A stretch of 64,000 bases of DNA, from positions 1-64,000 of the forward strand of contig JALUEE010000047.1 of NCBI GenBank assembly GCA_027053075.1, read 5' to 3'. The number at the start of each line of letters is the position of its first letter. Position 1 is the first letter of the stretch. Under the pieces are notes generated by a model. It saw only the letters and a program-made list of their open reading frames with translations, was not told where the DNA came from and ran no database searches. A program made the position numbers and the translations under genes. Source of the DNA: a candidate division WOR-3 bacterium. Its GTDB lineage: Bacteria; Hydrothermota; Hydrothermia; B15-G9; WFZT01. Below, piece by piece: positions 34,808 through 53,456 of this stretch.

Positions 34808-35043
34808 GAATTAAATCCAGCTCTGCGTCATGAGCACGGGTATTTGTGAGAAAGTGGATTTCTGGGCACTAAGAATTAAATCAAGCTCTGTGACATAAGC
34901 ACCATCCGCGAGAGAAGAGATTACATTCACGACCTTAAAGACAATAGGAATTAAATCCAGCTCTATAACATAGTCACTTAAAAAACAACGCTGAGCTGGT
35001 TTTGAAAGAGCATGAATTAAAATCAGCTCTATAACACAGTCAC
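34808..35043. repeat. CRISPR-like mini-array: four diverged 30-nt repeats with unique 35/45/36-nt spacers
   Basis: Repeats at 34808, 34873, 34948, 35014 (e.g. GAATTAAATCCAGCTCTATAACATAGTCAC). Confidence 0.7.
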
Positions 35044-35220
35044 CCTCCCGTGGTTTTTTTGGTAGAACCTTTTTCATAGGCTTTTTCATAGTCACCCTCC
35101 CCCACTTGCTCTGCAAGTGGAGGAGTAGTCCAGTTCCCACCTTCGAAACTAAGGAAGTTTCCCTCCCCCACTTGCCCTGCAAGTGGGGGAGGGCAAGGGA
35201 GGGGGCATTCCGCTTGAAAA

Positions 35221-35502: not shown

Positions 35503-36789
35503 GTTCCGATCCTACCTACGAGGCATGGAAATTATCATCCACCTGAACGTCCCATGAAGCAGAATCAAGTTCCGATCCTACCTACGAGGCATGGAAATGA
35601 AAAATTCGGAATCAATTGCCCTGTAAGTGAATTGTTCCGATCCTACCTACGAGGCATGGAAATATTGGCCTTGTTCCTGCAGAAAACATAAGAGTGTCTT
35701 TGTTCCGATCCTACCTACGAGGCATGGAAATTTGAGATTGAGAAGTAGCCGTCAGTAGTGGAGATAGGTTCCGATCCTACCTACGAGGCATGGAAATTCC
35801 CCATATTCAGCTCGATATAGTTTTTTCAATTCGTTCCGATCCTACCTACGAGGCATGGAAATTACCTCCTTTTATTTTAATTATCCCTAAACCTAACGTT
35901 CCGATCCTACCTACGAGGCATGGAAATGCTTTGACTGATTGAGGTATGTGGAAAGTAAGTAAAGAGTTCCGATCCTACCTACGAGGCATGGAAATTTTTG
36001 TTTATAATCCCTTTCATAACATTTCTCCTCGTTCCGATCCTACCTACGAGGCATGGAAATGCGATCTTCTCAGAGAAATACGGGAACTAAAAGAGGGTTC
36101 CGATCCTACCTACGAGGCATGGAAATGCAAAAGTCCCAGGTAATTGCCCTGGAGAATCCCTTGTTCCGATCCTACCTACGAGGCATGGAAATCTCCGTTG
36201 CCGGCTAATCCGAATGCAAGGGTATTGGTTCCGATCCTACCTACGAGGCATGGAAATTAGATATCGAGAAGATTCTGAGGCTTCCGGTGTATTGTTCCGA
36301 TCCTACCTACGAGGCATGGAAATCATTTCTATTTTCTAACTTGGGTTTCACAAATTTTTCCCGTTCCGATCCTACCTACGAGGCATGGAAATAAACCAAT
36401 ATCACCAAATCCTATATAATCATGACTTTCGTTCCGATCCTACCTACGAGGCATGGAAATGAATAGACTATAAAAGCCCAGCCGTTTTGAGTTGGTGTTC
36501 CGATCCTACCTACGAGGCATGGAAATTATGTTTGGAAACATGAAATAAAATGGTATAAGAGAGTTCCGATCCTACCTACGAGGCATGGAAATCCGGAAGA
36601 CCCAGAAAAGATAAAGGAACTTGATGTAGTTCCGATCCTACCTACGAGGCATGGAAATACGGTTTTATCCACACCGTACACGGAGTTTGACAGGGTTCCG
36701 ATCCTACCTACGAGGCATGGAAACTCCAATCCTCTTTTAAGACAAATACATACGGCAATGTTCCGATCCTACCTACGAGGCAAAAAATT
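35503..36789 (+). CRISPR. CRISPR array, 20 repeats and 19 spacers (35-39 nt)
   Basis: Repeat GTTCCGATCCTACCTACGAGGCATGGAAAT (30 nt); repeat 19 ends GAAAC, repeat 20 (36760) is degenerate at its 3' end. Confidence 0.99.
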
Positions 36790-36868
36790 TGGTCTATCTT
36801 CTCTGACTCATTGACCTTCTGAGATTGCTTTGAAGATAAAAAATTTTGGGATTTTGAAACGTCCTCCA

Positions 36869-36909
36869 CGCGGTTTTGCCCACAAACGAAGTTTGTGGGC
36901 AAAACCGCG
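36869..36909. repeat. GAA-triloop palindrome downstream of the array
   Basis: CGCGGTTTTGCCCACAAAC-GAA-GTTTGTGGGCAAAACCGCG, 19-bp perfect stem. Confidence 0.85.
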
Positions 36910-37003
36910 AAAATACATTCACCCCACCATCAAAAACTATCCCTTCCCATCCCTCCACCTCCAATTCTTGTTTGAAAGCTCCCCATTCGTTAGAATTTTC
37001 GAC

Positions 37004-38878: not shown

Positions 38879-40145
38879 AGACGACGCTGTATTATGCAAA
38901 ACGCTCGCGAAGATCCTGAGAAAGTATCATCACGTGGATGCATTCACAGACTCTCAAAAAGCGCTAAACCACCTTTCGTCCACTACTTATGATGTAGTTC
39001 TAACAGATGTTCGTATGCCTGGAGTCTCTGGCATAGACATTTTACAGCATGTCATGACTCATTCACCTGGCACGCATGTAATTTTATTTACGGGATACGG
39101 GACGGTTGATGAGGCGGTTCGTGCCATAAAAATGGGAGCATACGATTACATTCTGAAACCAATCGATACCACTTATCTCCTTTTGAAGCTTGAAAAGCTT
39201 GAAGAGATGAACTGCGATTTCCTTGCAAAATCTGAAGTCAATCTTGTGTATCAAAGTCAGGCAATGAAGTCCGTCGTGGATATGGCCCTCAAAGTGGCTC
39301 AAACTGATTCCACTGTGCTCCTAACTGGCGAAACCGGCGTGGGGAAAAATCTTGTTGCAAAACTCATTCATCTGAACAGCAAAAGGAAATCGAGGAAATT
39401 CCTCTCGTTTAACTGTGCGAATCTTCAGGAATCTCTCTTCGAGGGAGAATTATTTGGATATCGCAAGGGGGCATTTACGGGCGCAGTGAATGATAAAAAG
39501 GGCATTATCGAGCTTGCTCACAGGGGAACACTGGTGATTGACGAAATAACCGAAATGCCAGTGAACATTCAGGCAAAATTTCTAAAATTCCTCGAGGAAA
39601 AGGCCTTTTTTAAGCTCGGAGATAATGAACAAACCCGGGTTGATGTTAGAATAATTGCTATCACAAACAAAGACATTGAATCAATGGTGAAAAGTGGAAA
39701 GTTCAGGGAAGACCTGTTTTACAGAATAAATGTTTTCAGGATTCATATCCCACCTTTGAGGGATAGGAAAGAAGACATTCCTGTTCTTGCTCGCTATTTT
39801 CTTGATAAATTCAAAGAGATAAATCCAGGAATTACTGGAATTTCCGATGAAGCAATGGAAAAGCTCATGGCCTACGATTACCCCGGGAATGTGCGGGAAC
39901 TCTCAAACATCATTGAAAGGGCGATGATACTTTCGAGAAGTGAGAGGTGGATTCTTCCCCATCACATAACAACTCTTTTTGGCAGACCACAGGTAACGAA
40001 CCTGAGTCTTGATGAGCTAACAAGACGACATATTTTATCGGTACTTCAATTTACCGGAGGGGACAAATCAAAAGCCGCGAAGATACTTGGAATTGACCGC
40101 TCTACCCTGTACAGGAAGCTGAAGGAGTATGGGATAGAGGTATAG
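38859..40145 (+). CDS. Sigma-54-dependent response regulator (NtrC family)
   Basis: REC domain, GETGVGK, GAFTGA, PGNVREL, Fis HTH. Confidence 0.95.
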   Translation: MKILLIEDDAVLCKTLAKILRKYHHVDAFTDSQKALNHLSSTTYDVVLTDVRMPGVSGIDILQHVMTHSPGTHVILFTGYGTVDEAVRAIKMGAYDYILKPIDTTYLLLKLEKLEEMNCDFLAKSEVNLVYQSQAMKSVVDMALKVAQTDSTVLLTGETGVGKNLVAKLIHLNSKRKSRKFLSFNCANLQESLFEGELFGYRKGAFTGAVNDKKGIIELAHRGTLVIDEITEMPVNIQAKFLKFLEEKAFFKLGDNEQTRVDVRIIAITNKDIESMVKSGKFREDLFYRINVFRIHIPPLRDRKEDIPVLARYFLDKFKEINPGITGISDEAMEKLMAYDYPGNVRELSNIIERAMILSRSERWILPHHITTLFGRPQVTNLSLDELTRRHILSVLQFTGGDKSKAAKILGIDRSTLYRKLKEYGIEV

Positions 40146-40165
40146 ATAGTCGGGAGTGACCAATT

Positions 40166-40635
40166 GAGTCTGTTCGAAAGTTCATTCTTTAATATCTACA
40201 TTTGGGAAACAACTGAACCTAAGTTTCCTCTCTCCCACGCAGAGCGTGGGAGAGGGTTTTAAAAGGGTGACACTCCGCTTGAAGATTAGAAGTTTAGGAT
40301 AACGATCTCATGTAGGGTTGAAAAGGGAGTTTGAATACTCATTTTATACGAAAACTTTGAATTATGTTGCCCCTCTCCTTTTATCCTCTCCCCGCAAGTA
40401 TTTATGCGGGGAGAGGAGTATTTTGCGTTTGGAAATATTCGGCTCCCAGGTCGATTTTCGAAGGGCTTTAGGTAGGGGGTTACGTCAGAAACTTTCGAGT
40501 GTTATACTACGATAGAGTCATTAGACAGAAATCCTTAAATTCAATCTTTCATCATTTCCTCCATCCCTGGGAATGAAATGGGCAGGGAGATTCCTCTTTA
40601 AATTCCAGATAAATTGAAATTCTTCGAACACACTT
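40166..40635. mobile_element. MITE with TIRs and 9-bp target duplication
   Basis: GAGTCTGTTCGAA / TTCGAACACACTT; TGACCAATT at 40157-40165 and 40636-40644. Confidence 0.8.
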
Positions 40636-40731
40636 TGACCAATTAAATTTAGAAATTTTTGCATTGATTATCGAGGCGTTCACTGATTCGGGATTGTTTA
40701 GAACAGAGTGGTAGGGTATGTAGAAACGTTA

Positions 40732-40768
40732 TTGGTGCCGCCGCAAGCTTCGCTTGCGGCGGCACCAA
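40732..40768. repeat. Triloop palindrome (GAA on minus strand)
   Basis: TTGGTGCCGCCGCAAGC-TTC-GCTTGCGGCGGCACCAA. Confidence 0.85.
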
Positions 40769-40944
40769 CAAAAAACGGCATTCCACTCGAATAGAATTTC
40801 TTAAACCCCACAAAAGATATTTTCCCCAACCAAAATCAAACCACCACTGATCAACCTGGTCAGCTCTTTTATCTCCGAAAGTTTAGCCCTTTCAACTAAC
40901 CCAAACTTTATCAGTTGCTTCTTGTGTAGATTGAGATATCTTTT

Positions 40945-41046
40945 TGTTGCATTCTGCGACATAATTGACACCAATCGTCTCATTTTAAGACTGATGGCAT
41001 CCGAAATCCCCTAATTTACTTACAAAGCTGTGGCAGAAAAATTGCA
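40945..41046 (+). promoter_or_regulatory. Sigma-54 promoter with candidate upstream activator site
   Basis: TGGCAGAAAAATTGCA (GG-N10-GC) at 41031-41046; inverted repeat TGTTGCATTCTGCGACA at 40945-40961. Confidence 0.75.
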
Positions 41047-41077
41047 TCTCACTCTCCGACAAAAGGAGGTGAAGTGT

Positions 41078-42991
41078 ATGAAAAAATTACTGGCCCTGTT
41101 ATTAGTTTTTACCGTGCTACACGGCTATGATGCAAAATCTTCCTGCGTAAAGTGCCATTCCAATAAGGAGCTTCTGAAAAAACTCGGAGCTCCTCAAATG
41201 TACATGGACCCAGCACAGGTCGATAAGGAAGTCAATATGAACGGAGTTCCCAAATGCGTTGACTGTCATCTTGGTAACAATAAAACCATGGACATGAAGA
41301 AAGCCCACAAAGGTATGCTGAAGCCATTCTACGCCGCCATCGGTAAAACCCTTAAATACCAGTATGTTGATCGAAGCGTTACCAACTACGATCGCATACT
41401 TCCAAAAGGGAAGAAAAGATTTAAAGTTCTCATGCGTAAGCCCACCTCTGAGGCAAAAAAGAAATACCACATCAAAAAACTCATGCAACTCTTTTATCAT
41501 GACAGGGACACGGCAACATTTACATTTAACATAAAAATTGCCCAGAAGACCTGCGGAAAATGTCATTCAAAAGAGGTAAATGACTATAAGCACACCTCTA
41601 TGGCACTTTCACTTTATCAAAGGGCATACACGGACTGGACAAAATCACCTCCAGGCCCTCAAAACTGCGGAGTCTGGTTTGCTGACAATTACCAGACAAT
41701 AAAAGGAAAATGTACGAGAGATTACACAGAAAAAATGGCAAAATCAGCTACGAGGGGATGTAACAAGTGTCATACTTCATGTCTTGATTGCCATTATGCT
41801 GGATATAAAAAATCCGTGACAAGCCACAAATTCCTCTCAGAGCCAGAGCCTATGTCATGCTACGGTGGAGGGAGAGGAACCATCTGCCACGCAGGTCCAA
41901 TGGATCGCCGTCGTGGTGCTGGTTATATGAGACAGGAGTTTGCTTTCCCGGTAGGAGAACTCCCAACCGACGTACATAATAAAAATGGTGTCACATGCCT
42001 CGATTGTCACGAGCCTCACAACCATGACTGGGGTCACCTTGCTTCAGCAACTGCACGCAACTCCTGCTCAAAATGTCACGAGGAAATAGTTGATGCTGTT
42101 AAAACCGGCATTCACAAGAATGTTGACTGCACTGCGTGCCACATTCAAAAAGTCGGGGCCTATCAGTTCACATTTTGGGGCCCCGGAATATTTGTTGGCA
42201 TGCCCAACGTTTTTACAAAGCACAAGCAGTATTACGGTGTGAGAAGTATGCCTCTACTCGTCAAACACCCGACGCGTAAAGTCTGGATACCGGTCAAACC
42301 CTATCCTATGGCCGTTATGAACATCTCCGAGGATGTGAAACCCACCGGACTTATGGTAAGGTCTATTCCTGAGGAGAAAATTAAGGGACATCCCGAAGTT
42401 GGAGAGCCTAAATTTTTGAAAGTCAAGCGCTCACCAGACCAGATAAACGACATGTACATAATAACTGGCACGTTTGACGGGCTTAAGAAAAACAATAAAA
42501 TGCTCGCATGGATTCAGATGGATAAGATGTCCCACGCTATCGGAAAGGGTAGATCATGTCAGTCCTGCCACAGCTCTCACGATCAGGTTGCAACAACCTG
42601 GTACACTTATTCCAATATGAAGGATGTACAGAAGAAATTCAGCGGAAGTTATATCGTGAAGGCAACAAAGGACGGCATCACTTTCAGTGGTTTTGAAAAT
42701 CATACACCAATAATTCCAAAGCCGGGAAGAGATGTGGAAGATTTCGCTCCATTTTTAACACTTCCCAACGCCTGGAACGTGAGGGGAATCGACTTCTCCA
42801 TACCGTTTGATGAAAAGAAATACGAAGCAGAGCTAAACAAATACAATATGATTTACGCCGAAATCCACGCACTGAAGCTGAAATATGCAAAGGATGAGGC
42901 CAAACTCGAACAGCTGAATTTGATCAAAGCCATTCTCCCCCACAATCCCGAAAAAGCCCAACAGATGCTGAACGAGATGAAAAAGGGGTGA
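41078..42991 (+). CDS. Periplasmic multiheme cytochrome c
   Basis: Signal peptide, 9 CxxCH motifs plus one CX8CH; AGGAGG RBS. Confidence 0.9.
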   Translation: MKKLLALLLVFTVLHGYDAKSSCVKCHSNKELLKKLGAPQMYMDPAQVDKEVNMNGVPKCVDCHLGNNKTMDMKKAHKGMLKPFYAAIGKTLKYQYVDRSVTNYDRILPKGKKRFKVLMRKPTSEAKKKYHIKKLMQLFYHDRDTATFTFNIKIAQKTCGKCHSKEVNDYKHTSMALSLYQRAYTDWTKSPPGPQNCGVWFADNYQTIKGKCTRDYTEKMAKSATRGCNKCHTSCLDCHYAGYKKSVTSHKFLSEPEPMSCYGGGRGTICHAGPMDRRRGAGYMRQEFAFPVGELPTDVHNKNGVTCLDCHEPHNHDWGHLASATARNSCSKCHEEIVDAVKTGIHKNVDCTACHIQKVGAYQFTFWGPGIFVGMPNVFTKHKQYYGVRSMPLLVKHPTRKVWIPVKPYPMAVMNISEDVKPTGLMVRSIPEEKIKGHPEVGEPKFLKVKRSPDQINDMYIITGTFDGLKKNNKMLAWIQMDKMSHAIGKGRSCQSCHSSHDQVATTWYTYSNMKDVQKKFSGSYIVKATKDGITFSGFENHTPIIPKPGRDVEDFAPFLTLPNAWNVRGIDFSIPFDEKKYEAELNKYNMIYAEIHALKLKYAKDEAKLEQLNLIKAILPHNPEKAQQMLNEMKKG

Positions 42992-43076
42992 AAACGGTGA
43001 GACGTAAGGAACGAATTGTGTTTTTTTATGTCTTGAAAGTTCAACGGGGCTAAAAATCTGATTTAAAGGGGAATAG

Positions 43077-43103
43077 GGGGGCGCCTCCTTCGGAGGCGCC
43101 CCC
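43077..43103. terminator. Palindrome between convergent genes
   Basis: GGGGGCGCCTCC-TTC-GGAGGCGCCCCC followed by a T-run. Confidence 0.7.
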
Positions 43104-43171
43104 TAACTTTTTATCGGCATCTCACTGGCTCAAGTTATGGTTTTATTCAATGTGATATCAAACATCTTCAT

Positions 43172-44194
43172 TTAATCAATGACAGGAATATCCATTTCAG
43201 TGACGTCAATTCTCACGAGACTTTTATCACCGGACTGTCTCACATACTCAGCCTGTCTATCTCCCACCACAGCCTCAAGAATCATTGCTGATGATACCAT
43301 CGCGGTCCCACCGGTTATATTAAAACTAATATCGCTATCTTCATAATTTTTGAGATTTTGCAGCAACCTATCTAATTCAATCTTAACGTCTCTGAAATCA
43401 CTGACATCAACAACTCTGGACTTTTCTATGATCAAATCTCCCGTGGTAATTCTTTTTTCGAGATGTGGAATAACCTTCAGAAATTTTTCAAAATCAGCAA
43501 AATGTTCTTTTGCTTTCTCTGATAATATGACAATAACCCCTTCAAGAATGTGATTTTCGTGTATAATTGCTCTCAACGCCGGTGTCCAGTTGCCGGGCAA
43601 GTCTTTTAAAGTTTCCTCTTTAGGTATTGCCGGGTTACCCAGTTGCCGTAATTTTTCTTGAAGAGATTGAATCTGTTCAAAGGGCTCACTGCTGGGCAAA
43701 CTCAGTGCAAAGATAAGAACTTTTCTGGGGAGCGGTTTATCGTGGGCAGGTTTTTCTTTTGGCTCGAACAAACAATTGATGTATAGTAGAGGCAATAAAA
43801 ACAGAAACAAGATTGCCAATATGAATGTCAGAATGTGATGCCAGAGTAAGCCCTTATTGTAATCCGGTGTTAAAACAAGTATCCCTGCATCCCTCACACT
43901 ATCAAATACCCAGGAAATCTGGAATAAAACACTCAGGAAAATCCAGATGGACAGGTATCTATAAATTTTCTTTAACCCTTTTCGCGGTGGCTCTTTTAGA
44001 AAGTTACGAAGGGCATCTGTGAGGCCAATAGATTTGTCCTTATATTTATACATCAAGATGGTTATTGCTGAAATCAAAAGGATAATCAATAAAGTTTGGC
44101 CTAACGCCATAAAGGAGAGTATAAATGGGAAAACGCTTGAAAAGGCCAAAAGTGCAATTATGAACAGTATCTTTAAAAATTCCCTGAAGCTCAA
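43172..44194 (-). CDS. Transmembrane CARF-domain CRISPR effector (Cam1/Cam2-like)
   Basis: About 4 N-terminal TM helices; C-terminal Rossmann-like domain with ISFNITGGTAMVSS; last gene of the cas operon. Confidence 0.75.
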   Translation of the reverse strand: MSFREFLKILFIIALLAFSSVFPFILSFMALGQTLLIILLISAITILMYKYKDKSIGLTDALRNFLKEPPRKGLKKIYRYLSIWIFLSVLFQISWVFDSVRDAGILVLTPDYNKGLLWHHILTFILAILFLFLLPLLYINCLFEPKEKPAHDKPLPRKVLIFALSLPSSEPFEQIQSLQEKLRQLGNPAIPKEETLKDLPGNWTPALRAIIHENHILEGVIVILSEKAKEHFADFEKFLKVIPHLEKRITTGDLIIEKSRVVDVSDFRDVKIELDRLLQNLKNYEDSDISFNITGGTAMVSSAMILEAVVGDRQAEYVRQSGDKSLVRIDVTEMDIPVID

Positions 44195-44196
44195 TT

Positions 44197-44583
44197 TTAT
44201 ATCCTTCTCATTTCTCTGAACTTTTCTCTGATGCTCTGGAGATTTATTATTTCTGCAACCTCAAATTTTGGAGGGGTAGAATTCGGAACCGGCTTCAATC
44301 TCACTACAGGTGGGAAATATCCCATCAAACCATGAAGTGCTGCAAGGAGGGTGACAGCAATAAAATTAAAGGCTGGTGGAACTATTATAATCGGCCGTGT
44401 CTGCCACTCCTCAGGTGTCAGGTTACACGCCTCAATAAGATCTTTCACCTGCTCCTCAAAAGACTTTTCATTATCAAAAAACACTGGAATCTGCCTTATC
44501 TCCTCAATCTCCTCATCTATCAATTTCCTGATCTGCCCCACCTGCTCCTCAGTTAGTGGATGAGAAAAATTAAGCACGAGCAT
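44197..44583 (-). CDS. csx15: CRISPR-associated protein Csx15
   Basis: LNFSHPLT, LHGLMGYFP, EIINLQ motifs. Confidence 0.8.
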   Translation of the reverse strand: MLVLNFSHPLTEEQVGQIRKLIDEEIEEIRQIPVFFDNEKSFEEQVKDLIEACNLTPEEWQTRPIIIVPPAFNFIAVTLLAALHGLMGYFPPVVRLKPVPNSTPPKFEVAEIINLQSIREKFREMRRI

Positions 44584-44585
44584 GG

Positions 44586-44713
44586 TTACTTTAAAATTTT
44601 AAACACTCCATATCCCTGATTCCCTTTTGCTCCAACACCTATGTTTTCAAGGGCAAATTCGAGAAATCTTTATCCCAGAATATTGAAAAAGTATCTATAA
44701 AAATAACCTTCCC
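44586..44713 (-). pseudogene. cmr6: Remnant of a III-B-like cmr6 (C-terminal pieces)
   Basis: GKVIFIDTF, then in another frame RFLEFALENIGVGAKGNQGYGVFKILK-stop, ending 2 nt before the csx15 ATG. Confidence 0.75.
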
Positions 44714-44717
44714 GTTA

Positions 44718-45575
44718 TTATGATTTAATTGGTCGCCATAAACCATTATCCAATATTTCAAAGTAAACATCTTGATCGCTATCCACCTTTGTTCCTGGTT
44801 TCCAAGTCAAGCCTTGTGTATAAATACGCTGTAAGTACCTGCCCTCCAAAACTTCAAAATCTCCTTTAAATTTGAAGTGCGGGTCTGGCATTATATGACC
44901 AAATGCTATATTGGATTTTATGCGTGGATTTGTATGATTCAGTTCCACTTCGTAATCCAAAAAACGAGAAGCTTCCGGATGTTTCACGAGTTCAATATGA
45001 CCAAATCCGTAGCGGGTATCTGCTCCTACCATCAGTTTCTTTATTGAGAAAACTTGGTTTTGAACACTCTCATCGGCAATAAACACATACCCCACCATGA
45101 ACATCTCGGGAGGTGGATAATGGTTACTAATTTGCCAATAAGGTTGAATGCACTCTAATTCGCGAAGTGTCCCTTCCTCAGCACTATCTGATTTGGGATC
45201 AATGGATGTGGAGGGAAACGAATACAGAATTTTTGATTTGAAGTCTCTGTTTGGCTTATCATCATTTGGAGTGTCTTCCCTTTTCCAAACGAGTCCATCA
45301 GAGTATTCTGAATACCACATAGCGTATTCATCGCCAATTTTTTCGGCTGGGAACAGATAGGAAAATCGGACATTTTGTAGCAAATTTTCACCAATCGAAA
45401 TATAATCCGGGAAACTACTTCCTGCCGTATCCCGTGATAACTCGGCTGTTAATGCTCCCCAAATTGTCCTTGCTGGTATGTATAAGCGGGTTCTGTTCAA
45501 AATTCCTGCTGGTGCCGTGCCGATATTTATGGGTGATTTTACCTTCCAGACCCATCGGAACATCTTCCATGCCAT
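44718..45575 (-). CDS. cmr3: Type III-C RAMP Cmr3 (Cas5 group)
   Basis: SPINIG, YIPARTIWGALT, GADTRYGFG; position after cmr5. Confidence 0.75.
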   Translation of the reverse strand: MAWKMFRWVWKVKSPINIGTAPAGILNRTRLYIPARTIWGALTAELSRDTAGSSFPDYISIGENLLQNVRFSYLFPAEKIGDEYAMWYSEYSDGLVWKREDTPNDDKPNRDFKSKILYSFPSTSIDPKSDSAEEGTLRELECIQPYWQISNHYPPPEMFMVGYVFIADESVQNQVFSIKKLMVGADTRYGFGHIELVKHPEASRFLDYEVELNHTNPRIKSNIAFGHIMPDPHFKFKGDFEVLEGRYLQRIYTQGLTWKPGTKVDSDQDVYFEILDNGLWRPIKS

Positions 45576-45581
45576 AATTTC

Positions 45582-45950
45582 TCACCCCTGTTTGGCCTTC
45601 AAGTGATAACGAGCATACGAGAATGCGGTGCGTAGAAGGTCTCGAGCAAAAAGTAAATCATCTAAATCTTTGGAGTTTGCTAAGAGCTTTATTGCTTCCA
45701 AAATATCGTCCGTAGTATCCAAGCGATTTCCGAAAATGGTCTTGAGAAATTGCAGAGATTCCGATCTAACCTCTTTAGCTACATTGTTATTCTTGGCCTT
45801 GAGATATAGAAACATCGCATACGGGCCTTGCTCTTCCAAAACAGTCAAGGCCTCGTTGACAAGATTTTCATCTATGCCAGAAATCTGGGCTATCTCACGG
45901 CCCAATTCGGCACACTGAATGTCCAAATTTTTCATTTGAGCTTCACTCAC
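45582..45950 (-). CDS. cmr5: Type III small subunit Cmr5 (Cas11)
   Basis: Helical, ALTVLEEQGPYAMFLYL, YARYHLKA; GTG start with GGAGG. Confidence 0.75.
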   Translation of the reverse strand: MSEAQMKNLDIQCAELGREIAQISGIDENLVNEALTVLEEQGPYAMFLYLKAKNNNVAKEVRSESLQFLKTIFGNRLDTTDDILEAIKLLANSKDLDDLLFARDLLRTAFSYARYHLKAKQG

Positions 45951-45978
45951 GGCTTTCCTCCTCGTTTGGTTCAGAGGC

Positions 45979-47010
45979 CTATGACGGATTAGATTGTCTC
46001 TGAGCGGGTTCAACGCAATCAATATCTTGGGTTCCGGGCGATTCATTCTCATGCACAACTTCTACGCGTCCCATGCCTCGAGTGCCCATGCCGCCGATGC
46101 CCAAGTGTTTGAGATAGGGGTGAGCCTGGTGGGTTACCTCATGCACCCTTTCTGGAGAATACATTCGCTGACCACCATCCAGAATGACGCCTATCTCCTG
46201 TCCACCTATTCTAAAATGCTGAGGATTCTTTGCGATAATTTCCCACACCAGGACCGTGGATCGAGGCAGGGCTTCGTAAGAGAAGAGAGCCCTTTCTTCG
46301 GCAGCACCAGTTTCGGGATTGATGGAAACCGAGGTGCGCACTTCCAAATTGCTGTTGACGATGTGGGCGAAGAGGCGGTCAGGCACCAAAGCAAGGCGGT
46401 TTTGGATGTAATCTGGGATACCCAGGCCTTGCAATTTAGTTTTAATATCATTCATTTGGGCACACGCTTGCACAGGCAGCAATAACCAACCCAAGTTAAG
46501 AGGGTTGCCCGAGTTTGATTCAAGGTAAACGGCATTTTCCTCCACCCCCTGCACATTCAAACCTATAAAACGCAAGGTCTGAGGTGCAGTCACCCACATG
46601 GGGCCTTGACGGGTAGCGACAGGGAAGAGCAGCAAATGGACATCAGTAAAGGCGGCCAAGCCTGCAAAACCGCCTTCCTGCCCTGCACCACGGGCGAAAC
46701 CAAAGACAGTGCAAACGGGACAGTCAGGTTGGCGACAATGCCCATGATCCGCATCCAGCCCTAACCCGGCGCAATCGGGGTAAAAAGGTTTATCTCGGTT
46801 CGGAAATTGTGCTGTCCGATTTTCTTCAAAATACATCGCCACATAGGCCCGATACACTCCAGCTAAGCTGGACCCAGGAATTTTAGGCACCTGGGTGACC
46901 GGGTCGCGCACAATAGTCAAATCTACCCGACCGATGCGGGTCCCACCGGTGCCCACATGAATAGGGTCCAGAGCCAGACCAACCTGCAAGAATTTTTTGT
47001 AACTAGACAT
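45979..47010 (-). CDS. cmr4: Type III RAMP Cmr4 (Cas7)
   Basis: DPIHVGTGG, VDLTIVRD (catalytic Asp), IPGSSLAG, GGMGTRGMG. Confidence 0.9.
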   Translation of the reverse strand: MSSYKKFLQVGLALDPIHVGTGGTRIGRVDLTIVRDPVTQVPKIPGSSLAGVYRAYVAMYFEENRTAQFPNRDKPFYPDCAGLGLDADHGHCRQPDCPVCTVFGFARGAGQEGGFAGLAAFTDVHLLLFPVATRQGPMWVTAPQTLRFIGLNVQGVEENAVYLESNSGNPLNLGWLLLPVQACAQMNDIKTKLQGLGIPDYIQNRLALVPDRLFAHIVNSNLEVRTSVSINPETGAAEERALFSYEALPRSTVLVWEIIAKNPQHFRIGGQEIGVILDGGQRMYSPERVHEVTHQAHPYLKHLGIGGMGTRGMGRVEVVHENESPGTQDIDCVEPAQRQSNPS

Positions 47011-47023
47011 TATTTACCTCCTT

Positions 47024-50000
47024 TCAAACATTTTCTTTAAGGACTATTGTATGCCAATCTATCGCCCATTGGAGTAATCTCTGTTGGGCAGAGTCTATGA
47101 GGGTTTCAAGTGCTGTGCCCCTGACCTCTAAATGGTGCACAAGCATGGCACGGAGAGTATCTTCCCACAAATCTTTTGAAACGGCTCGTTGCCCCTCGGG
47201 TGTTTGCCATTCCTTTTCCAAACGCCCAAGTTCTGTTCTAAATCTCTGAAGAGCCGTTTGGCTTGGGACAACTTTCTTTAATAGGTTCCATATTTCGCGC
47301 ATTTGCTCCCAATCTTCCAAGTAATGTAAATCTGGGTTAGAGAAGCGAGCGGAGGTGCTTCCCATGAAGAGGATGGTTACACGCGCTGTGGATACTTTTA
47401 CACCATCACCTGGACGAAGGTCCGATACATGACGGTAAACACGGCCATCCTTTGGATGGCGAAAATCTCGGGGAAAACGAAGTTGTCGATCCTCAATTAC
47501 CATGTAAGGATAGAACACATCATCTCGCCCATCAGGCATAGCAGTAGGCACTATCTTTAAGATGCTCTTGCCGTCTTCCAGTTTTAAGCGGAGGACTACC
47601 ACACCTGCTTGTCGTTCCACTTCTTCCACCTGCCATGTTTCCTCCTCTCCTTTCAGTTCTTCTTCCATTTTACGTGTTGCTCCGATCACGGCCTGATAGG
47701 GCAACATTCGAGGGAATGCGACCACGCCTATCCGTAAAGGAAGCCGATCCCACACGCGGGAGAAGTGTTCCTTCCACCAGGAAACAGCTATATCCACACA
47801 TTCGGAGGCCGCTTCCAATGGCACCAGCACCCGAAAACGAAGTGGAGAGACTTCTACCGGAATGACCGGGTGATACAAGCTCAAGTGCGCATGAGGCTGA
47901 CGCAGCTCATTCACATGGGTAACAGTCATAGGACGCTCCTGACCAAAGGTATCTTCTTCTTCCAGCCTAATTTGAGCACCCTGAAAGGAACTCGATTGCT
48001 CTTCTGGCCGTAGCAATCTACCCAGATTGGAAGCCGTCACAAAACCTCCCAGGCTACGCACATAGACCAGGCTAATCTGCCGACCTTCCCAACGGCCATT
48101 GTAAAGGGTCAGGTCTCGCCAATCGTTATTGTCGTCTGGAACCAACACCAAGCGTCGGACACGCCAGCAATTTTCGCTGCGAGCCGCTATCTGCCGAAAT
48201 TCCTTCAGCAAGTCATGGAAGAACTCCTCGGCCTCCCGCCAGAAGCGATAGACACGGCCAGGTGAGGGAAGCTTGCGGAAGAGTTGATGCGCAAGCCAAG
48301 CAGCTCGCTGGTCGTCATTCAAGATACCCCATGTAGGTGCATCGGTACGATCCTCTACAATTTTACGGAAAAAAGTTGGCCAGTCATTTTCATACTTGTA
48401 ACCCTCTTGAAGGTTGGCAAGCAATTGGTCGTTTTTATCGAATTTAAAATGCTGTGGATTTTGTGGATCGCGAAACCTTTGTTTTAGCTCGTCAATCAGC
48501 TTATCCATAGAGCCTGTGGGGGCAATAGGATTAGGTTGACCTGAAAGGACCAGGTTAAATCTCACCCACTCCGGTATTGCTTGTACCCGCAGGCTATCCA
48601 CACGGCTGCCATTGAGCCAATCTTCAAGGTCCAGTGAGAATGTTAGCAAAGCCAGGCGGCCGTTGCGGTCAGCCACCTCCTCGAACCAGATGGTGTCGTA
48701 ATCCAGTTGCCCCTGAAGCCATGCATCTCTTCGATGGTGGCGCCGCTCGCGGCATACCGCGCATGGCTTACCCTTGTTGGTGGGATCACCGTTTAGTCGC
48801 ACACGGCAGACGGGACACACATGACCACGCGTCTCTGAAGGAGCCCTCCAATGAACATCCCACTGCTTGTGAACAGGGACGGCCACTACCAGCTTGGACT
48901 CTTTAAGCTCCCTAACAATGGGTACCAATGAACGGGTCGGCTTACTCAGGCGCACAAAGGGCGGGGTTTCCAGTTCCAGATTACGGGCGATTTCTTCTAC
49001 TTGATCTTGGAGCCATCCATTCCATCCTCGGAGCCGGGATGCGAAGTTCTCTTCATCAAACTCAAAATTCGGATCTCTCCGTCTTTGACGTTCCTGTTCT
49101 TCTTCATCGAATCTCTCGCCGGGAAAAGAAAACACGGCCATGCTGCTGTCTCGATAAAGCAAAGAGCCTGCAGCAATGTCCACCTCCACCAATTCAGCTA
49201 CACGACGGAAAAATTCGTCAATGGCACCTTGAGCACCTGTCCAGTCACCAATTTTTACCGCGCGGGCTTCGTAGTGCTCGGTCCCAAGGGCGATAGTGAG
49301 CAGGCGCCAGCGGGTATTGCTTTTGGTAAAATTATTGATAGCCAATTTCTCATCTTTCGATAGGTCATCGAAGGACTTCTCTTTTCCTTTCTTTGTTCTA
49401 AGGTTTATACCCAATTTGGTAGCTATGCTCTTCCAGTTCCAAGGAAAACCCTTATCGAGCAACGCCCCAGCCACCGCGCTCTTAAATAGAGCCGCAGCCA
49501 CATAGGACTGGTCCCACAAGGTAACATCGTTGTTGGGCAAACGCGTCTCGGCTAAGGTGGACATAAAAGCTCTTCGGACAAAAGATTTTTCTCCGATAGC
49601 TCTATTCCGCCAGTCTTGCCAATGAGCTACATCTGACACACCTCTGGTTCCTAAGTCCCGCAACTCCTCCAAAACTCGCCGGATTTCTCCCACCAATTGC
49701 TGCCAGCCCTGTGGAGTCAATAGTTCAGGTGGATTGGCCAGCAGGTTACGCTTTGGGTGGCCCCAAGGTGAGGAAAGCCACATGTGAGGAATGGTTTGCT
49801 TAAGATAATCTGAGGTAGAAGTAGGAAGGTTTTTCTCGACGCCAGAGACAATACCATGTCCTGCTTGGAGTAATCCCAAAAGACCAGGGTTACGTCCTGC
49901 ATGTTGTTCAATAAACGTAGAAAAAGAACCTGGCCATGCATTATTGGGTATTCCACTCCCGTATAGCCGTTTTACCCATTCTAATAAGGTATCCCATGGA

Positions 50001-50182
50001 AAAGGTGGCGTTTCCAAATCATGCCAATGTCGTTCATCGTAGCCGTTGTTCTCGCCACCATGACGGCGTAAAAATTCAATTCGTGCCTTTCCAGCCATGT
50101 GAAACCACCCAATGGCCTCCATTGCTAAGAGTAAAGGGCGATGTTGCCGTAAAGTCTCAGCCGGTGAGAAAGTGCTGCTCAT
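47024..50182 (-). CDS. cas10: Type III-C large subunit Cas10 (Csx11-like)
   Basis: ETRLPNNDVTLWDQSY, CPVC...CAVC, KLPSPGRVYRFW; HMAGK where HD is expected and no GGDD; start ATG 50182. Confidence 0.85.
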   Translation of the reverse strand: MSSTFSPAETLRQHRPLLLAMEAIGWFHMAGKARIEFLRRHGGENNGYDERHWHDLETPPFPWDTLLEWVKRLYGSGIPNNAWPGSFSTFIEQHAGRNPGLLGLLQAGHGIVSGVEKNLPTSTSDYLKQTIPHMWLSSPWGHPKRNLLANPPELLTPQGWQQLVGEIRRVLEELRDLGTRGVSDVAHWQDWRNRAIGEKSFVRRAFMSTLAETRLPNNDVTLWDQSYVAAALFKSAVAGALLDKGFPWNWKSIATKLGINLRTKKGKEKSFDDLSKDEKLAINNFTKSNTRWRLLTIALGTEHYEARAVKIGDWTGAQGAIDEFFRRVAELVEVDIAAGSLLYRDSSMAVFSFPGERFDEEEQERQRRRDPNFEFDEENFASRLRGWNGWLQDQVEEIARNLELETPPFVRLSKPTRSLVPIVRELKESKLVVAVPVHKQWDVHWRAPSETRGHVCPVCRVRLNGDPTNKGKPCAVCRERRHHRRDAWLQGQLDYDTIWFEEVADRNGRLALLTFSLDLEDWLNGSRVDSLRVQAIPEWVRFNLVLSGQPNPIAPTGSMDKLIDELKQRFRDPQNPQHFKFDKNDQLLANLQEGYKYENDWPTFFRKIVEDRTDAPTWGILNDDQRAAWLAHQLFRKLPSPGRVYRFWREAEEFFHDLLKEFRQIAARSENCWRVRRLVLVPDDNNDWRDLTLYNGRWEGRQISLVYVRSLGGFVTASNLGRLLRPEEQSSSFQGAQIRLEEEDTFGQERPMTVTHVNELRQPHAHLSLYHPVIPVEVSPLRFRVLVPLEAASECVDIAVSWWKEHFSRVWDRLPLRIGVVAFPRMLPYQAVIGATRKMEEELKGEEETWQVEEVERQAGVVVLRLKLEDGKSILKIVPTAMPDGRDDVFYPYMVIEDRQLRFPRDFRHPKDGRVYRHVSDLRPGDGVKVSTARVTILFMGSTSARFSNPDLHYLEDWEQMREIWNLLKKVVPSQTALQRFRTELGRLEKEWQTPEGQRAVSKDLWEDTLRAMLVHHLEVRGTALETLIDSAQQRLLQWAIDWHTIVLKENV

Positions 50183-51198
50183 GGCGTACCTCCTTTGGTT
50201 AGCCAGTTTTGAACTTCCTGCCAGAGTTCGTCGCGAGTATCCTTTTCCACGCTGCCATGAGTTTTGTGGAAAGCGCGCCACTTTTTGATTTCCGCTGTGC
50301 CCCAGCCCACAGTGCGCTTGGCGGAGATCCCATAGGGAGTAAGCAAAGTTTCAATAGCTTCAAGCAGTTTTGGGAGTACATCCACAGGTTTTGCCTCTGG
50401 CTCCATACCGGGCCAGGGCGCGTAAAGTAATGAAAGTGTTCCTTCGGCTCCCTCAACTTCCTCTCTTTCTTGGGTTCCATCAGACTTTTTCTTCACCTGT
50501 ATCGTCCGTCCAGGAACCACTTCATAGTAAATAGGTTGGGTGCCAGCGCGATTGGTACGACTATGTGGGTTGATGACCTCGAAGCCGATCTTGTTGAACC
50601 ACGTGGGGTAGAAGACCAGAGCGCCCTGGTGGAAGTTTTTCTCTTCCTTCTTCTCGTTACCAAAGAGATGCTGAATCCAGTCCGGATCCCACCAGCCATC
50701 TATTTTGCCATTGTGTTGTTCCAGATATTCCATCAGTCCTTCGTGCATTCTACAGGCCCATCGCAGCATGCCTTTACAAGAGGAAGCCGCCATAAATGGC
50801 ACGCCAAAGACCCGGTCTTTACGCACAGGGTTGTCCATCACATGGAAAATTCGGTCATCACGGGAATACCAGGGAGTGAGTAGTTCAAAATCCACCTGAA
50901 GAGCAAGCCAACGATCAGATAATAGCGTGGAAAAGTCAATTTGTAGTCCTGGATACAACTTGACCGGGAATCTCCGAGGCACTTTTCCCATGTATTCCTT
51001 ACGGAGCCTCGTTTTCTCCCGCTCCGCCTGACGTTTTCCCTGTCTGTCATTTGTCTTTTCCGCTTCTAATCGCTTGATTTCAGTCTTCAAGAAGCATTTG
51101 AAAATATGATCGATAAAACCTCCGGCCAGCCTCCAAGCCACCGGAGTGTTTTCCAATGGTTCGCAAGTCTCAAGAAAGATGAAGTAATCCCAAGTCAT
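50179..51198 (-). CDS. cmr6: Type III-C RAMP Cmr6
   Basis: LLTPWYSRDD, KGMLR, LVFYPT, EVINPH, YGISAKRTVGWG. Confidence 0.85.
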   Translation of the reverse strand: MTWDYFIFLETCEPLENTPVAWRLAGGFIDHIFKCFLKTEIKRLEAEKTNDRQGKRQAEREKTRLRKEYMGKVPRRFPVKLYPGLQIDFSTLLSDRWLALQVDFELLTPWYSRDDRIFHVMDNPVRKDRVFGVPFMAASSCKGMLRWACRMHEGLMEYLEQHNGKIDGWWDPDWIQHLFGNEKKEEKNFHQGALVFYPTWFNKIGFEVINPHSRTNRAGTQPIYYEVVPGRTIQVKKKSDGTQEREEVEGAEGTLSLLYAPWPGMEPEAKPVDVLPKLLEAIETLLTPYGISAKRTVGWGTAEIKKWRAFHKTHGSVEKDTRDELWQEVQNWLTKGGTP

Positions 51199-52421
51199 GA
51201 ATTTTCCTCCTGTTTGAACAATCGTTCCATAATTTGCTCTCCTGTAATGAAATCCTCATTCGGATTAAAGTCCTGCCAAATTTGCCCCAAGCGGCGCTTC
51301 ATTTCTTCAAAATCCACTAAACCCGGCTTCACAAAGCCAAAGGTGCGGCGTGCTTCTTCTGGATGTTCGAAACTGAACACTTTTTTGCTTACCTGTTGAC
51401 TACCCGCAAGCCAGTGATTAACCTCGTTATCTCGCCAGAAGTTCTGCGCTTGGTTCTTCCGCATATTCCTTCCAATGACAAGATTATATGTACTTTTGGT
51501 GAACGATTGCCTTGCCAGATACCGTCCTTTCACGAACCAGAAGTTTTGCAACGAGGCCCAGGCAAAATCTTGGTCGTTAAAGCTCTTTCGCCACCGTTCC
51601 TGTTTTACATATGCTTCTGCTTGCTGCAGAGTGCAGCCAACTCCTTGAGGCCGCTCCTCAACCGTGATGAGCCCGAAATCCTGATGGTGTCTCTTTCCGG
51701 CCCAAGCATTGATCTCCCGAGTTTCATTGTCCCTTCGCACTTTGATTTTGAGAGGTTCACCATGCGGTTTTCCACTAAGGAGGTTTTCAAGGTCAAGAAG
51801 ACGAGTCACCAATGTGCTATCAACTTCCAGGATTACATCGCCTTCTTGTAACTGGAGCCCCCGCCGACTGTGTCGCACTTTTATCTGCCCGCTTGAATCG
51901 TCCAGATCATCGGCGCCAAGATCAGCGATTCCCCATTCATCTGACGGCTTGAACACCGTTTTCCCACCCAAGGCCCCGTATTCGGCAATAAGGTGGATGG
52001 TTGCATCCAGCAGACACCATTCTTCTGGATGAATAGGTCGCAAAGGGATGAAGCGTAGGATAAAAATATTACTCCCGTTGTCGTCATTATCTACCTTGAT
52101 CTGATTTTGGATGACCTTTTTTCCATATTTGTCCACCACCATAAGCCGGAACTTGCGTGCCCAACCAGTGCAACCGAAAAGTTCACAAACCACGCAATGG
52201 TGGCCAGGTTCATGTGGCTGTTTGTTAGGAGCTGGGCAACGAATTTCCGACGCCGTCGGGTCACAAGCCTTCCCACCCAATCCTCGAACTAACACCTCGA
52301 ACCACCAGCGAAGTGAACCCATTATACCGGTCAAGATCGTTCTTTCCCCACGCCTTGAAGCATCCCCTGTGAATATCGGGGTTAGCGCTTTTAACTTCCA
52401 TTCCTCCCATTCTTTACTCAT
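51195..52421 (-). CDS. cmr1: Type III-C RAMP Cmr1 with PDZ-like insertion
   Basis: LTPIFTG, GSLRWWFE, CELFGCTGW, YGALGGK. Confidence 0.85.
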   Translation of the reverse strand: MSKEWEEWKLKALTPIFTGDASRRGERTILTGIMGSLRWWFEVLVRGLGGKACDPTASEIRCPAPNKQPHEPGHHCVVCELFGCTGWARKFRLMVVDKYGKKVIQNQIKVDNDDNGSNIFILRFIPLRPIHPEEWCLLDATIHLIAEYGALGGKTVFKPSDEWGIADLGADDLDDSSGQIKVRHSRRGLQLQEGDVILEVDSTLVTRLLDLENLLSGKPHGEPLKIKVRRDNETREINAWAGKRHHQDFGLITVEERPQGVGCTLQQAEAYVKQERWRKSFNDQDFAWASLQNFWFVKGRYLARQSFTKSTYNLVIGRNMRKNQAQNFWRDNEVNHWLAGSQQVSKKVFSFEHPEEARRTFGFVKPGLVDFEEMKRRLGQIWQDFNPNEDFITGEQIMERLFKQEENS

Positions 52422-52543
52422 TAGGATATCTCCATTTTTAAAATAACCTGTAAGGACAAGAGAATAACGGTTTCATCAGGAAATAAGCATTTCGGGTATA
52501 GGGAATCATGGCTGTAGAAATTCAAGAGATAAAAAGTCTCTGT

Positions 52544-52660
52544 GAACCAGAATCTCATTGCGCCTCTTATCGAGGCGGGGCGGAGTTCGGGCTCACCCTC
52601 TGGGTCAGCTCCGCCCATAAACATTGGGGTTAAGACTTTTAGTTTGAAGGTGGTTTTCAT
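52544..52660 (-). pseudogene. cmr1: Truncated III-B-like cmr1 (first ~39 codons)
   Basis: MKTTFKLKVLTPMFMGGAD...ELRPASIRGAMRFWF, then similarity is lost; own RBS. Confidence 0.85.
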
Positions 52661-52697: not shown

Positions 52698-53456
52698 TTA
52701 ATCCTTATTTCTCACCACTTCGATCATGCCGAAGCCCTGGCTGTTTTTGGCTCCCAGGCCCGCATTGTAAGCAAGCATAAACCAGGGCTCGGGCAGGCTT
52801 AATTCATATATTCCTACCCAACCCTTAACAATGACGCCTTTAAACTTCGTTATTATCTCGTTGTGCTTCTTAACCTTTACGGGCTTTATATACCCCTCAA
52901 TTGGTGGGATGTCGTTTTTGGAGAAGTAAGCTTTGGCCTTGCGACGGAGGTTATCAAAGATCAATTCTTCAAATTCTTTCTCGAAGGGACTAAAGTAATA
53001 GGTCTTTCTCTGTCCATCGGACGTGTATAAAGTTCGATAAACTGTTATCGGAGAGATTGCTTTAATTTTCATAGGTCCCGAGAGTTTGAAAGGTCTCTCA
53101 ACCTCAATTGATACGAGATTGCATTTAGCTGAGCCGATTCTTACCACCCCTTCCTTAACCAGTGTAGCTGCGAAAGATTCGAGAATCTCAATATCAACAG
53201 ATGAAATCTTAAACCAAACTCGCCCCTCAAAAATCAGCTTTTTGCTTATCGGATCATACCTTCTATTTTCACCGAAGAGTCTTGAGAAGGTGTATAACTT
53301 GAATCTTCTCTTTCCAAATTGGTAGCCTTCATCATGTACCCATTCAGCGAGCTTCTCTTTGATGTTGTTGAGGATAAAACTCTGGATGATGTGGTTGTAA
53401 TTGACGGAGATTCTAAGGATTCCGTTCTCTGGCTCAAATTTTACAATTAATCTCAA
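52698..53456 (-). CDS. cas6: CRISPR endoribonuclease Cas6
   Basis: YNHIIQ, HDEG, FKLYTFSRL, GLGAKNSQGFG. Confidence 0.95.
   Translation of the reverse strand: MRLIVKFEPENGILRISVNYNHIIQSFILNNIKEKLAEWVHDEGYQFGKRRFKLYTFSRLFGENRRYDPISKKLIFEGRVWFKISSVDIEILESFAATLVKEGVVRIGSAKCNLVSIEVERPFKLSGPMKIKAISPITVYRTLYTSDGQRKTYYFSPFEKEFEELIFDNLRRKAKAYFSKNDIPPIEGYIKPVKVKKHNEIITKFKGVIVKGWVGIYELSLPEPWFMLAYNAGLGAKNSQGFGMIEVVRNKD

Follow-up and report, generated by a model that had tools for sequence, protein, structure and literature searches.

Apparent replacement in place of a type III-B interference module by a type III-C cassette, with a Csx15 and membrane CARF pair probably left without its signal, in a candidate division WOR-3 bacterium

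The CRISPR locus described here lies in a window of 64,000 nucleotides (nt), positions 1 to 64,000 of contig JALUEE010000047.1 in the metagenome-assembled genome (MAG) GCA_027053075.1 of a candidate division WOR-3 bacterium. Its type III-C gene set is built around a Cas10 of the Csx11 family without the HD and GGDD motifs, and is followed by two genes that are atypical for the subtype: csx15, which encodes a protein of a ring nuclease family, and a gene for a transmembrane (TM) protein with a CARF domain (TM-CARF). It is very probable that the III-C cassette replaced the interference module of a type III-B operon in place and left two gene stubs behind, and this replacement would be the reason why the two atypical genes stand in a III-C locus. 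That the pair is now without any cognate signal is probable, though held less firmly. The ancestral III-B locus would have consisted of cas6, cmr1, a GGDD-bearing Cas10/Cmr2, cmr3, cmr4, cmr5, cmr6, csx15 and the membrane CARF effector, and would have signalled by cyclic oligoadenylate (cOA), probably cyclic tetra-adenylate (cA4). A horizontally acquired cassette of cmr1, cmr6, Csx11, cmr4, cmr5 and cmr3 would then have overwritten cmr1 to cmr6 and removed the cyclase, leaving in place cas6, the two stubs, Csx15 and the membrane CARF effector. The III-C complex would probably use CRISPR RNAs (crRNAs) from the resident Cas6 and arrays and cleave target RNA via Cmr4, and the csx15/TM-CARF pair would be a recent orphan, intact and probably still co-transcribed. 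The pairing seems to have arisen by historical accident and not as a new signalling route.

The replacement is read from two scars. Between cas6 and the III-C cmr1 gene lies an open reading frame (ORF) of 79 codons (52421-52660) which starts with 39 residues of a Cmr1 N-terminus, continues with unrelated sequence and stops (52421) where the III-C cmr1 gene starts. Its N-terminal part is identical at 21 of 35 residues to the N-terminus of the III-B Cmr1 of a related genome, G009 (E 4e-15), and matches TIGR01894 at positions 1-40 of 167 with 37.8 bits (cut-off 28.65). At the other border, the 77 nt before csx15 encode '...LEFALENIGVGAKGNQGYGVFKILK' and a stop, the last 25 codons of Cmr6. This scar is identical at 77 of 79 nt to the 3' end of cmr6 in the metagenome locus L003, and its peptide matches TIGR01898 at positions 176-195 of 195 (E 0.008), the model that the upstream ORF of L003 matches with 86.6 bits. 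DNA similarity to L003 stops at 44662, which is 56 nt short of the III-C cmr3 stop. The exchanged span starts at codon 40 of cmr1 and stops 25 codons short of the cmr6 end, and the cassette that occupies it is about 7.9 kb long (about 44,664-52,543). In a III-B operon, the segment from codon 40 of cmr1 to near the end of cmr6 comprises the whole interference module including the cyclase. Of III-B, the site retains 39 cmr1 codons and 25 cmr6 codons. The features of the locus are as follows.

52698..53456, minus strand: cas6, resident, which would predate the cassette swap (TIGR01877, 127 bits)
52544..52660, minus strand: left scar, codons 1-39 of a III-B cmr1, preceded by an AAGGAGG ribosome-binding site of its own
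51195..52421, minus strand: III-C cmr1 (Cas7-like RAMP) with a PDZ-like insert (TIGR01894 and PF03787)
50179..51198, minus strand: III-C cmr6-like RAMP (PF03787, 60 bits)
47024..50182, minus strand: Cas10 of the Csx11/Cas10c family (TIGR02682 and PADLOC Cas10c)
45979..47010, minus strand: III-C cmr4, backbone Cas7 (TIGR02580, 113.6 bits, cut-off 87)
45582..46058, minus strand: III-C small subunit, Cmr5/Cas11 (PADLOC Cmr5 'CAS-III-C effector_SS', 1.1e-29, residues 42-157)
44718..45575, minus strand: III-C cmr3 (Cas5), final gene of the cassette (PADLOC Cmr3, 7e-73)
44586..44663, minus strand: right scar, the final 25 codons of a III-B cmr6 with their stop, 2 nt short of the csx15 ATG
44197..44583, minus strand: csx15, ring nuclease family, intact (NF040560, 166.9 bits, cut-off 35)
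43172..44194, minus strand: membrane CARF effector, intact (CARF fold and N-terminal helices; PADLOC CARF_2M and CARF8--CARF_TM)
43076..43104, no strand assigned: GC-rich 13-bp hairpin directly past the operon end, terminator-like on the plus strand only
35503..36802, plus strand: CRISPR array, a 30-nt repeat in 20 copies, from which the crRNAs are likely to come

The gene string on the minus strand reads cas6, the 79-codon ORF, cmr1, cmr6-like, Cas10, cmr4, cmr5, cmr3, csx15 and TM-CARF. Within it, cmr1, cmr6-like, cas10, cmr4, cmr5 and cmr3 stand in III-C order, collinear with the annotated Csx11 loci of Thermus and Anabaena. Together with the TIGR02682 and PADLOC Cas10c matches and the III-C models matched by the small subunit and cmr3, this order bears out the III-C assignment made in a first-pass annotation of the same DNA, which had been drawn from the letters alone. 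The same annotation had described csx15 and the CARF gene as tightly coupled at the operon end, which is correct for the 2-nt gap between these two; csx15 itself, however, lies 134 nt beyond the cmr3 stop, with the relic of a different gene in the spacer. No terminator-like site was found on the minus strand between cmr3 and csx15, and co-transcription of csx15 and TM-CARF with the III-C operon is therefore likely. Sites resembling sigma-70-type promoters were in no excess over chance in the cmr3-csx15 region (4 sites, 4.5 expected), and the host may use other promoters. The true start of the small subunit is probably internal, near 45935. In its N-terminal region Cmr4 contains 'GRVDLTIVRD', which we take to be the site of the RNA-cleaving Asp. 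The PDZ-like insert in the III-C Cmr1 covers approximately residues 186-240 (PF13180 PDZ_2, 32.6 bits, cut-off 27, residues 190-238) and gave weaker matches to PDZ_6 and Tricorn-PDZ; a PDZ domain within a type III backbone subunit is unusual.

A foreign origin of the cassette was apparent from its protein identities. Homologues of its Csx11 named from Thermogutta, Ammonifex, Chloroflexi, Rhodothermus, Thermus and two archaeal lineages reach 57-81% identity, but the Csx11 of a genome of the same genus, G004, reaches just 26-27%. The cassette is syntenic with the Csx11 locus of the Thermus thermophilus plasmid pHB5018b, and identity to the plasmid proteins is 70-76% for cmr1 (residues 4-162), cmr6, cas10 and cmr4 (the cmr6-like RAMP and cmr4 being 70% identical each), 61% for cmr5 and 35% for cmr3. 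The plasmid cmr1 is split, and identity to the III-C cmr1 falls from 70-76% over residues 4-162 to 39% over residues 200-399. Since identity to a Thermus plasmid is about 70% and that to the Csx11 of the same genus 26-27%, the III-C cassette is taken to be horizontally acquired. The GC content is 0.48-0.52 from cmr1 through cmr4 and 0.39-0.42 for cas6, csx15 and TM-CARF, with 0.44 for contig C47 overall; the value for cas6, 0.41, is host-like. A separate origin of cmr3 was considered, given its 35% identity to Thermus versus 70% and its GC content of 0.41, and was rejected. Cmr3 matches are about 40-45% identical where Csx11 on what are probably the same contigs is 62-69% identical, and in the nearest relative the values are 85% for Cmr3 and 81% for Csx11, both with a longest contig of 9485 bases and so probably from one contig. 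Cmr3 evolves fast throughout the clade, and therefore cmr3 is not a second mosaic piece.

In relatives, the pair was found behind III-B genes. Scans of the gene context of the TM-CARF family gave one locus in genome contigs and three in metagenomes, two of these cut within about 1.1 kb. The csx15 gene directly precedes the TM-CARF homologue in all four scanned loci (L002-L005) and in G009 (L025), and the upstream side of the pair, where visible, is never III-C. G009 (C95) has a complete III-B set of Cmr1, Cas10/Cmr2, Cmr3, Cmr4, Cmr5 and Cmr6, two Can2-like CARF nucleases, csx15 and TM-CARF, and its Cmr2 (TIGR02577, 225.6 bits) carries the motif IYAGGDDILA. About 2.4 kb upstream of its III-B locus, G009 has a cas6 gene (L025:2152-2931) whose product is 47% identical to the Cas6 of the window. 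The locus nearest in DNA sequence is L003 (87% over 970 nt), where 2 nt separate the Cmr6 C-terminus from csx15; in L004 and L005 a Csx1 C-terminus precedes csx15. The same-genus genome G001 (C49) has cmr4, cmr5 and cmr6, then TM-CARF. Elsewhere, csx15 follows III-A genes and Csx1 (G042, G010), or csm5 and a Can2-like gene (G003); the Csm1 of G042 has the motif VYAGGDDLFI.

The co-occurrence of the pair with III-C loci, which the first-pass annotation had suggested counting, was determined among 61 related genomes. A Csx11 match was found in 13, a Csx15 match in 9 and both in three (G000, G001, G056), so that 3 of the 13 Csx11-positive genomes have Csx15. Adjacency of Csx11 and Csx15 was seen in the window only; in G001 the two are on separate contigs, and in G056 both are on short contigs. 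In neither of the two plasmid loci was a csx15 or TM-CARF gene found beside Csx11, and no such neighbour was shown for the 12 remaining Csx11-positive relatives. Three further observations were made in these loci. The G009 block of III-B genes, Can2-like genes, csx15 and TM-CARF (L025 4156-18442) lies between UgpA-like and UgpE-like ABC permease genes, as if inserted into a transporter operon. Downstream of TM-CARF, a large ORF on the opposite strand in L002 (1454-3778, 774 residues) and L004 (1950-3800, at least 616 residues) resembles by eye a PEP-utilising or ATP-grasp type enzyme, to judge from its predicted protein. The CRISPR repeat of the window was not found in any of the 36 loci examined.

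The Cas10 of the cassette has 1052 residues, with its ATG at 50182 preceded by AGGAGG, and was identified as Csx11 by TIGR02682 (285.1 bits, cut-off 248.95) and as Cas10c 'CAS-III-C effector_LS' by PADLOC (5e-115). It carries HMAGK in the position of the HD motif (residues 28-32), and a regular-expression scan of the protein found no GGDD, GGDE, SGDD, AGDD or any [GAS][GAS]D[DE], in agreement with the description in the first-pass annotation. Across 35 aligned Csx11 sequences, H28, G31 and K32 do not vary and M29 is conserved to at least 90%; the HM that stands here for HD therefore characterises the Csx11 clade as a whole and is no lesion of this copy. Foldseek listed 50 matches to the AlphaFold2 (AF2) model (pLDDT 77, pTM 0.77), every one of them a Cas10 subunit of a III-A, III-B or III-D complex. 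The sequence VYVRSLGGFVTA at residues 706-717 belongs to a strand-turn-strand of this model at 701-716 (strands 701-708 and 713-716), and is likely to be the counterpart, in the predicted fold, of the 'YaGGDD' hairpin, with Phe-Val replacing the two Asp (GGFV); G713 and F714 are at least 90% conserved in the Csx11 alignment. Profile comparison did not bridge this distance: the 35-sequence Csx11 profile found no Cas10 among PDB sequences, and hhalign of this profile against the G009 Cmr2 gave a probability of 0.7% and no usable alignment. From the missing motifs and the literature we infer that Csx11 emits no signal. Across the clade (homologues P0156-P0274) about 100 positions are invariant in the 35 sequences, including four Cys (456, 459, 474 and 477) and many Asp, Glu, His and Arg; such strong constraint without either known catalytic motif suggests an unrecognised activity or a tight structural role.

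The TM-CARF protein has 340 residues, with NITGGTA at residue 292. Kyte-Doolittle windows of 19 residues reach 1.6 or more in residues 1-52 and 114-146, and long helices were modelled by AF2 at 3-26, 31-50, 75-108 and 114-142. Residues 153-336 have a CARF fold, as had been proposed for the C-terminal domain: VIA-align gave Z 12.0 to Card1 (6xl1_A; root-mean-square deviation (rmsd) 2.9, 129 aligned), 11.0 to Can2, 10.9 to Cami1, 10.4 to Csm6' and 8.5 to Cam1 (rmsd 3.5, 127 aligned), and the best 37 structural matches are all CARF proteins. PADLOC matched CARF_2M ('CARF, 2 TMs') at 1.4e-23 and CARF8--CARF_TM at 1e-18. A profile of 7 TM-CARF family members found no Cam1 chain among PDB sequences at E <= 1, and the protein is not classed as Cam1 here. 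Cam1 and Cap1 act by cA4-gated depolarisation of the membrane or as a pore. By analogy, TM-CARF is a probable cA4-gated membrane effector, and the ligand of its CARF domain would be cA4. Five distant homologues share 95 fixed columns, at 4 of which the protein departs; leave-one-out controls gave 2-15 departures. The close family is rare: 6 close homologues were found in a set of 5.8 billion clustered proteins, and 1.84 billion representatives gave 4 clusters at E <= 1e-30, within a wider halo of 366 clusters at E <= 1e-3. One homologue, P0001, is 94% identical and lies on a 4.5-kb contig. In the loci seen, this uncharacterised family of about 340 residues is always accompanied by Csx15 or a III-B cmr6.

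Csx15 is intact, as had been stated before, with the NF040560 match extending over positions 1-125 of 125. It is homologous to a solved Csx15 (9teu_A, E 1.9e-19) and to the Csx15 domain of CbCash (9ylu_A, E 3.6e-23), and its His8 is aligned with the His of 9teu_A. In HaCsx15, H8 is described as catalytic in the available text of a recent report, which gives the catalytic residues as His8 and Arg125 (10.64898/2026.10.26.761840). Several Arg are present near the C-terminus of the protein described here, to none of which the role of HaCsx15 R125 was assigned. Compared with L003, csx15 shows a dN of 0.028 and a dS of 0.575 (dN/dS about 0.05).

Given that Csx11 lacks the HD and GGDD motifs, the pair is without a cognate signal source in the genome, provided that no other cyclase is encoded there. 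The genome is 2.44 Mb in 114 contigs and 95.4% complete. A search for a GGDD-containing Cas10, proposed with the first-pass annotation, found none in this assembly: there was no match to TIGR02577 (Cmr2), TIGR02578 (Csm1) or PF22335 (Cas10 Palm2), nor to PF18144 (SMODS/CD-NTase) or a Csx1 model, and tblastn gave no hit with the GGDD Cas10s of G009 and G042 or with the Cmr3, Cmr5 and Cmr6 of G009. The G009 Cmr1 matched only the 35-residue relic, and the G009 Cmr4 only a III-C-like fragment on contig C99 (2236 bases). That contig carries a second set of a partial cmr4, the cmr5 small subunit and cmr3, in III-C-like order and about 50% identical to III-C genes of G001, with its Cas10 off the contig end; the Csx11 of the same-genus G004 is likewise without GGDD. 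The supply of crRNA looks resident. Besides cas6 and the array of 20 repeats, contig C57 carries a second array with 8 copies of the same repeat and contig C30 a type I-B locus with Cas1; the window has no cas1 or cas2. Between the array and the cas operon (36830-42991) lie genes for a sensor histidine kinase, a sigma-54-dependent response regulator and a multihaem cytochrome c. Just upstream of the array (34802-35191) are two families of degenerate direct repeats with a spacing of 65-75 nt, possibly the remains of an array that has decayed or else a structured leader.

The borders of the cassette were checked in Logan contigs of four runs from vent metagenomes, X1 to X4, of which X1 is possibly the source sample; the depth of a contig was used as a crude measure. 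An X1 contig of 4061 bases (depth 84.6) covers 42800-46413 with 0 differences, and the cmr3/csx15 junction is therefore real and not an artefact of MAG assembly. A second X1 contig joins 44574 to 52544 at depth 59.4, with 41 letters on the shorter side. Divergence from the window was seen at both borders of the cassette, at 52544 in contigs of X3 and X4 and at 44662 in one X4 contig. The depths in X2 and X3 were 632 and 346 over cas6, 309 and 89 over csx15, 121 and 143 over the 3' bin of TM-CARF (43164-43527) and mostly 5-22 over the III-C genes, except in the bin 46076-46439 (135 and 119), which fits common flanks and a rare cassette in these two runs. Low or zero cover of the cassette in X2-X4 does not show those habitats to lack it.

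Of the readings that the first-pass annotation had placed side by side, an orphaned effector is thus the one supported, and the two stubs, together with the position of the pair behind a GGDD Cas10 in relatives, supply a mechanism for it. Several observations nevertheless weigh against replacement followed by orphaning of the pair. Among the X1 pieces listed, none spans the left junction at 52544. Contig C99, with no assembled Cas10, demonstrates that type III genes are missing from the 114-contig assembly, and the same-genus G001 carries both III-B and III-C genes. The silence of Csx11 is based on missing motifs and the literature, and its very high conservation across phyla is left unexplained. 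Both accessory genes are intact, with the low dN/dS of csx15 and with TM-CARF keeping 91 of the 95 positions fixed in its family. On the replacement reading the pair would be functionally idle, and its intactness fits a very recent swap and, equally, continued use. Beside these stands an observation on the relic itself: in the comparison with L003, the cmr6 stub (77 of 79 nt) is better conserved than the synonymous sites of csx15 (proportion of synonymous differences, pS, 0.40). This does not match simple neutral decay, and either the stub carries a signal for csx15 expression or the stretch was recently exchanged.

Continued use would be explained most readily if an unassembled or unbinned III-A or III-B locus with an active cyclase supplied cOA in trans, and if Csx15 reset the effector. 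We regard this as unlikely, though it is the best of the alternatives. It gains from the number of contigs and the incompleteness of the assembly, from the fragmentary state of the type III genes including C99, and from G001, where the III-B genes cmr4, cmr5 and cmr6 with TM-CARF and a Csx11 fragment are on different contigs. The X1 contig that touches both borders of the cassette without containing it, and the purifying selection on the intact pair, point the same way, and ring nucleases in loci without effectors may act in trans according to the accessible part of a survey (10.1101/2024.09.24.614671). The assembly searches, however, gave the proposal no support: neither the Cas10 and Palm2 models nor tblastn with the GGDD Cas10s of two relatives found a candidate, the III-B queries from G009 met only the relic and C99, and C99 itself is III-C-like, in a genus whose G004 Csx11 has no GGDD. 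The depth of the cassette-free contig, 59 versus 85, suggests another strain and not a second copy in this one.

Considerably less probable is that the GGDD-less Csx11 complex itself emits a nucleotide or other signal when it binds its target, the pair having been captured as its output arm. Csx11 would retain a Cas10-like fold, to judge from the model, it is 57-81% identical across bacterial phyla and archaea with its many invariant Asp, Glu, His and Arg, and the pair is likely to be co-transcribed with it. No positive evidence for such a signal was obtained, and the adjacency is very probably accidental in origin, being the product of a replacement that left scars, and was not met in other Csx11 loci examined: the two plasmid loci have neither gene, and the count among the 61 genomes gave adjacency in the window only. 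No GGDD-like motif is present, and the likely hairpin reads GGFV with its conserved G713 and F714. Surveys, in the parts that were available, describe III-C as having no effectors (PMC11229360) and very few ring nucleases (10.1101/2024.09.24.614671). If a non-canonical signal from Csx11 were nevertheless true, this would be the first III-C system with a signalling branch, and the view of III-C as non-signalling would be overturned.

It is more doubtful still that the pair is kept for cyclic nucleotides of other origin, from CBASS-type systems or phages. For this speaks a report which, in its accessible text, has Csx15 degrade cA3, cA4, cA5, cA6 and some CBASS nucleotides in vitro (10.64898/2026.10.26.761840), and a survey which, as far as it was available, places 25% of Csx15 genes in genomes without type III (10.1101/2024.09.24.614671); in G032, csx15 stands beside a type I-B locus. 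The genome of the window, however, has no SMODS/CD-NTase match, the nearest structural matches of the CARF domain are cA4-binding CRISPR effectors, and the same partly available report calls the Csx15-CBASS association weak (10.64898/2026.10.26.761840). The poorest candidate is an assembly chimera, in which cassette and flanks of different strains were joined by the assembler: close relatives are present in the sample, several contigs break at 44662 and 52544 and one joins 44574 to 52544, but the independent X1 contig over 42800-46413 has no difference and the depth of the cassette contigs (84.6 versus 75-88), the junction sequences are unique and non-repeat, and the stubs are as expected from a real replacement.

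Replacement in place, with the pair probably left without a signal, has a bearing on what has been stated for type III systems in general. III-C loci are said to have no effectors (PMC11229360), and III-C and III-F loci 'have very few associated RNs' (ring nucleases; 10.1101/2024.09.24.614671), both in the accessible parts of these surveys; a third source, in the part available, reports a correlation between the losses of cOA synthesis and of CARF/SAVED ancillary genes and states this for III-G and III-H (PMC12669027). Literature searches on III-C listed no study that, by title or abstract, deals specifically with how III-C works or with a membrane CARF effector in a III-C locus, although supplements may list such loci. 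The locus would be an exception to the survey statements that signalling-dead type III subtypes are without cOA effectors and ring nucleases, and one whose cause is visible. It would show an exchange of interference modules inside one CRISPR locus, caught in the act, and the lag by which the loss of the cyclase precedes the loss of the ancillary genes.

In comparison with known systems, the cassette is closest to the III-C loci of the Thermus plasmid pHB5018b and the Anabaena cylindrica plasmid pANACY.02, which share the order cmr1, RAMP, Csx11, cmr4, small subunit and cmr3 and have no GGDD; protein identity to the Thermus cassette is 61-76% for 5 of the 6 genes, cmr1 being counted over residues 4-162. 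Unlike the plasmid loci, which have neither csx15 nor a membrane CARF gene, the cassette here sits in the remains of a III-B operon and is followed by both. Csx15 shares its full-length model match and its homology to solved chains with CliCsx15, HaCsx15, CsCsx15 and the Csx15 domain of Cash, but unlike these it is encoded beside a Cas10 without a cyclase motif, and its activity is a prediction from sequence. TM-CARF resembles Cam1 and Cap1 in having N-terminal transmembrane helices and a CARF domain at the C-terminus, and may be expected to work alike; it differs from them in its greater length (340 residues), in its approximately four long N-terminal helices and in a CARF domain that is nearer to Card1 and Can2 (Z 11-12). 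The nearest counterparts of the locus as a whole are the III-B loci of G009 (C95), G001 (C49) and L003. Across these loci, csx15 is 48-96% and TM-CARF 46-84% identical, and the stubs of the window match their full-length cmr1 and cmr6 genes. Accessory pairs with a GGDD Cas10 (G009, L003) and without one form a natural test bed. The III-B loci of these relatives keep the GGDD Cas10/Cmr2 and the full set from cmr1 to cmr6, whereas in the locus described here all of this has been deleted except for 39 codons at one border of the III-C cassette and 25 at the other.

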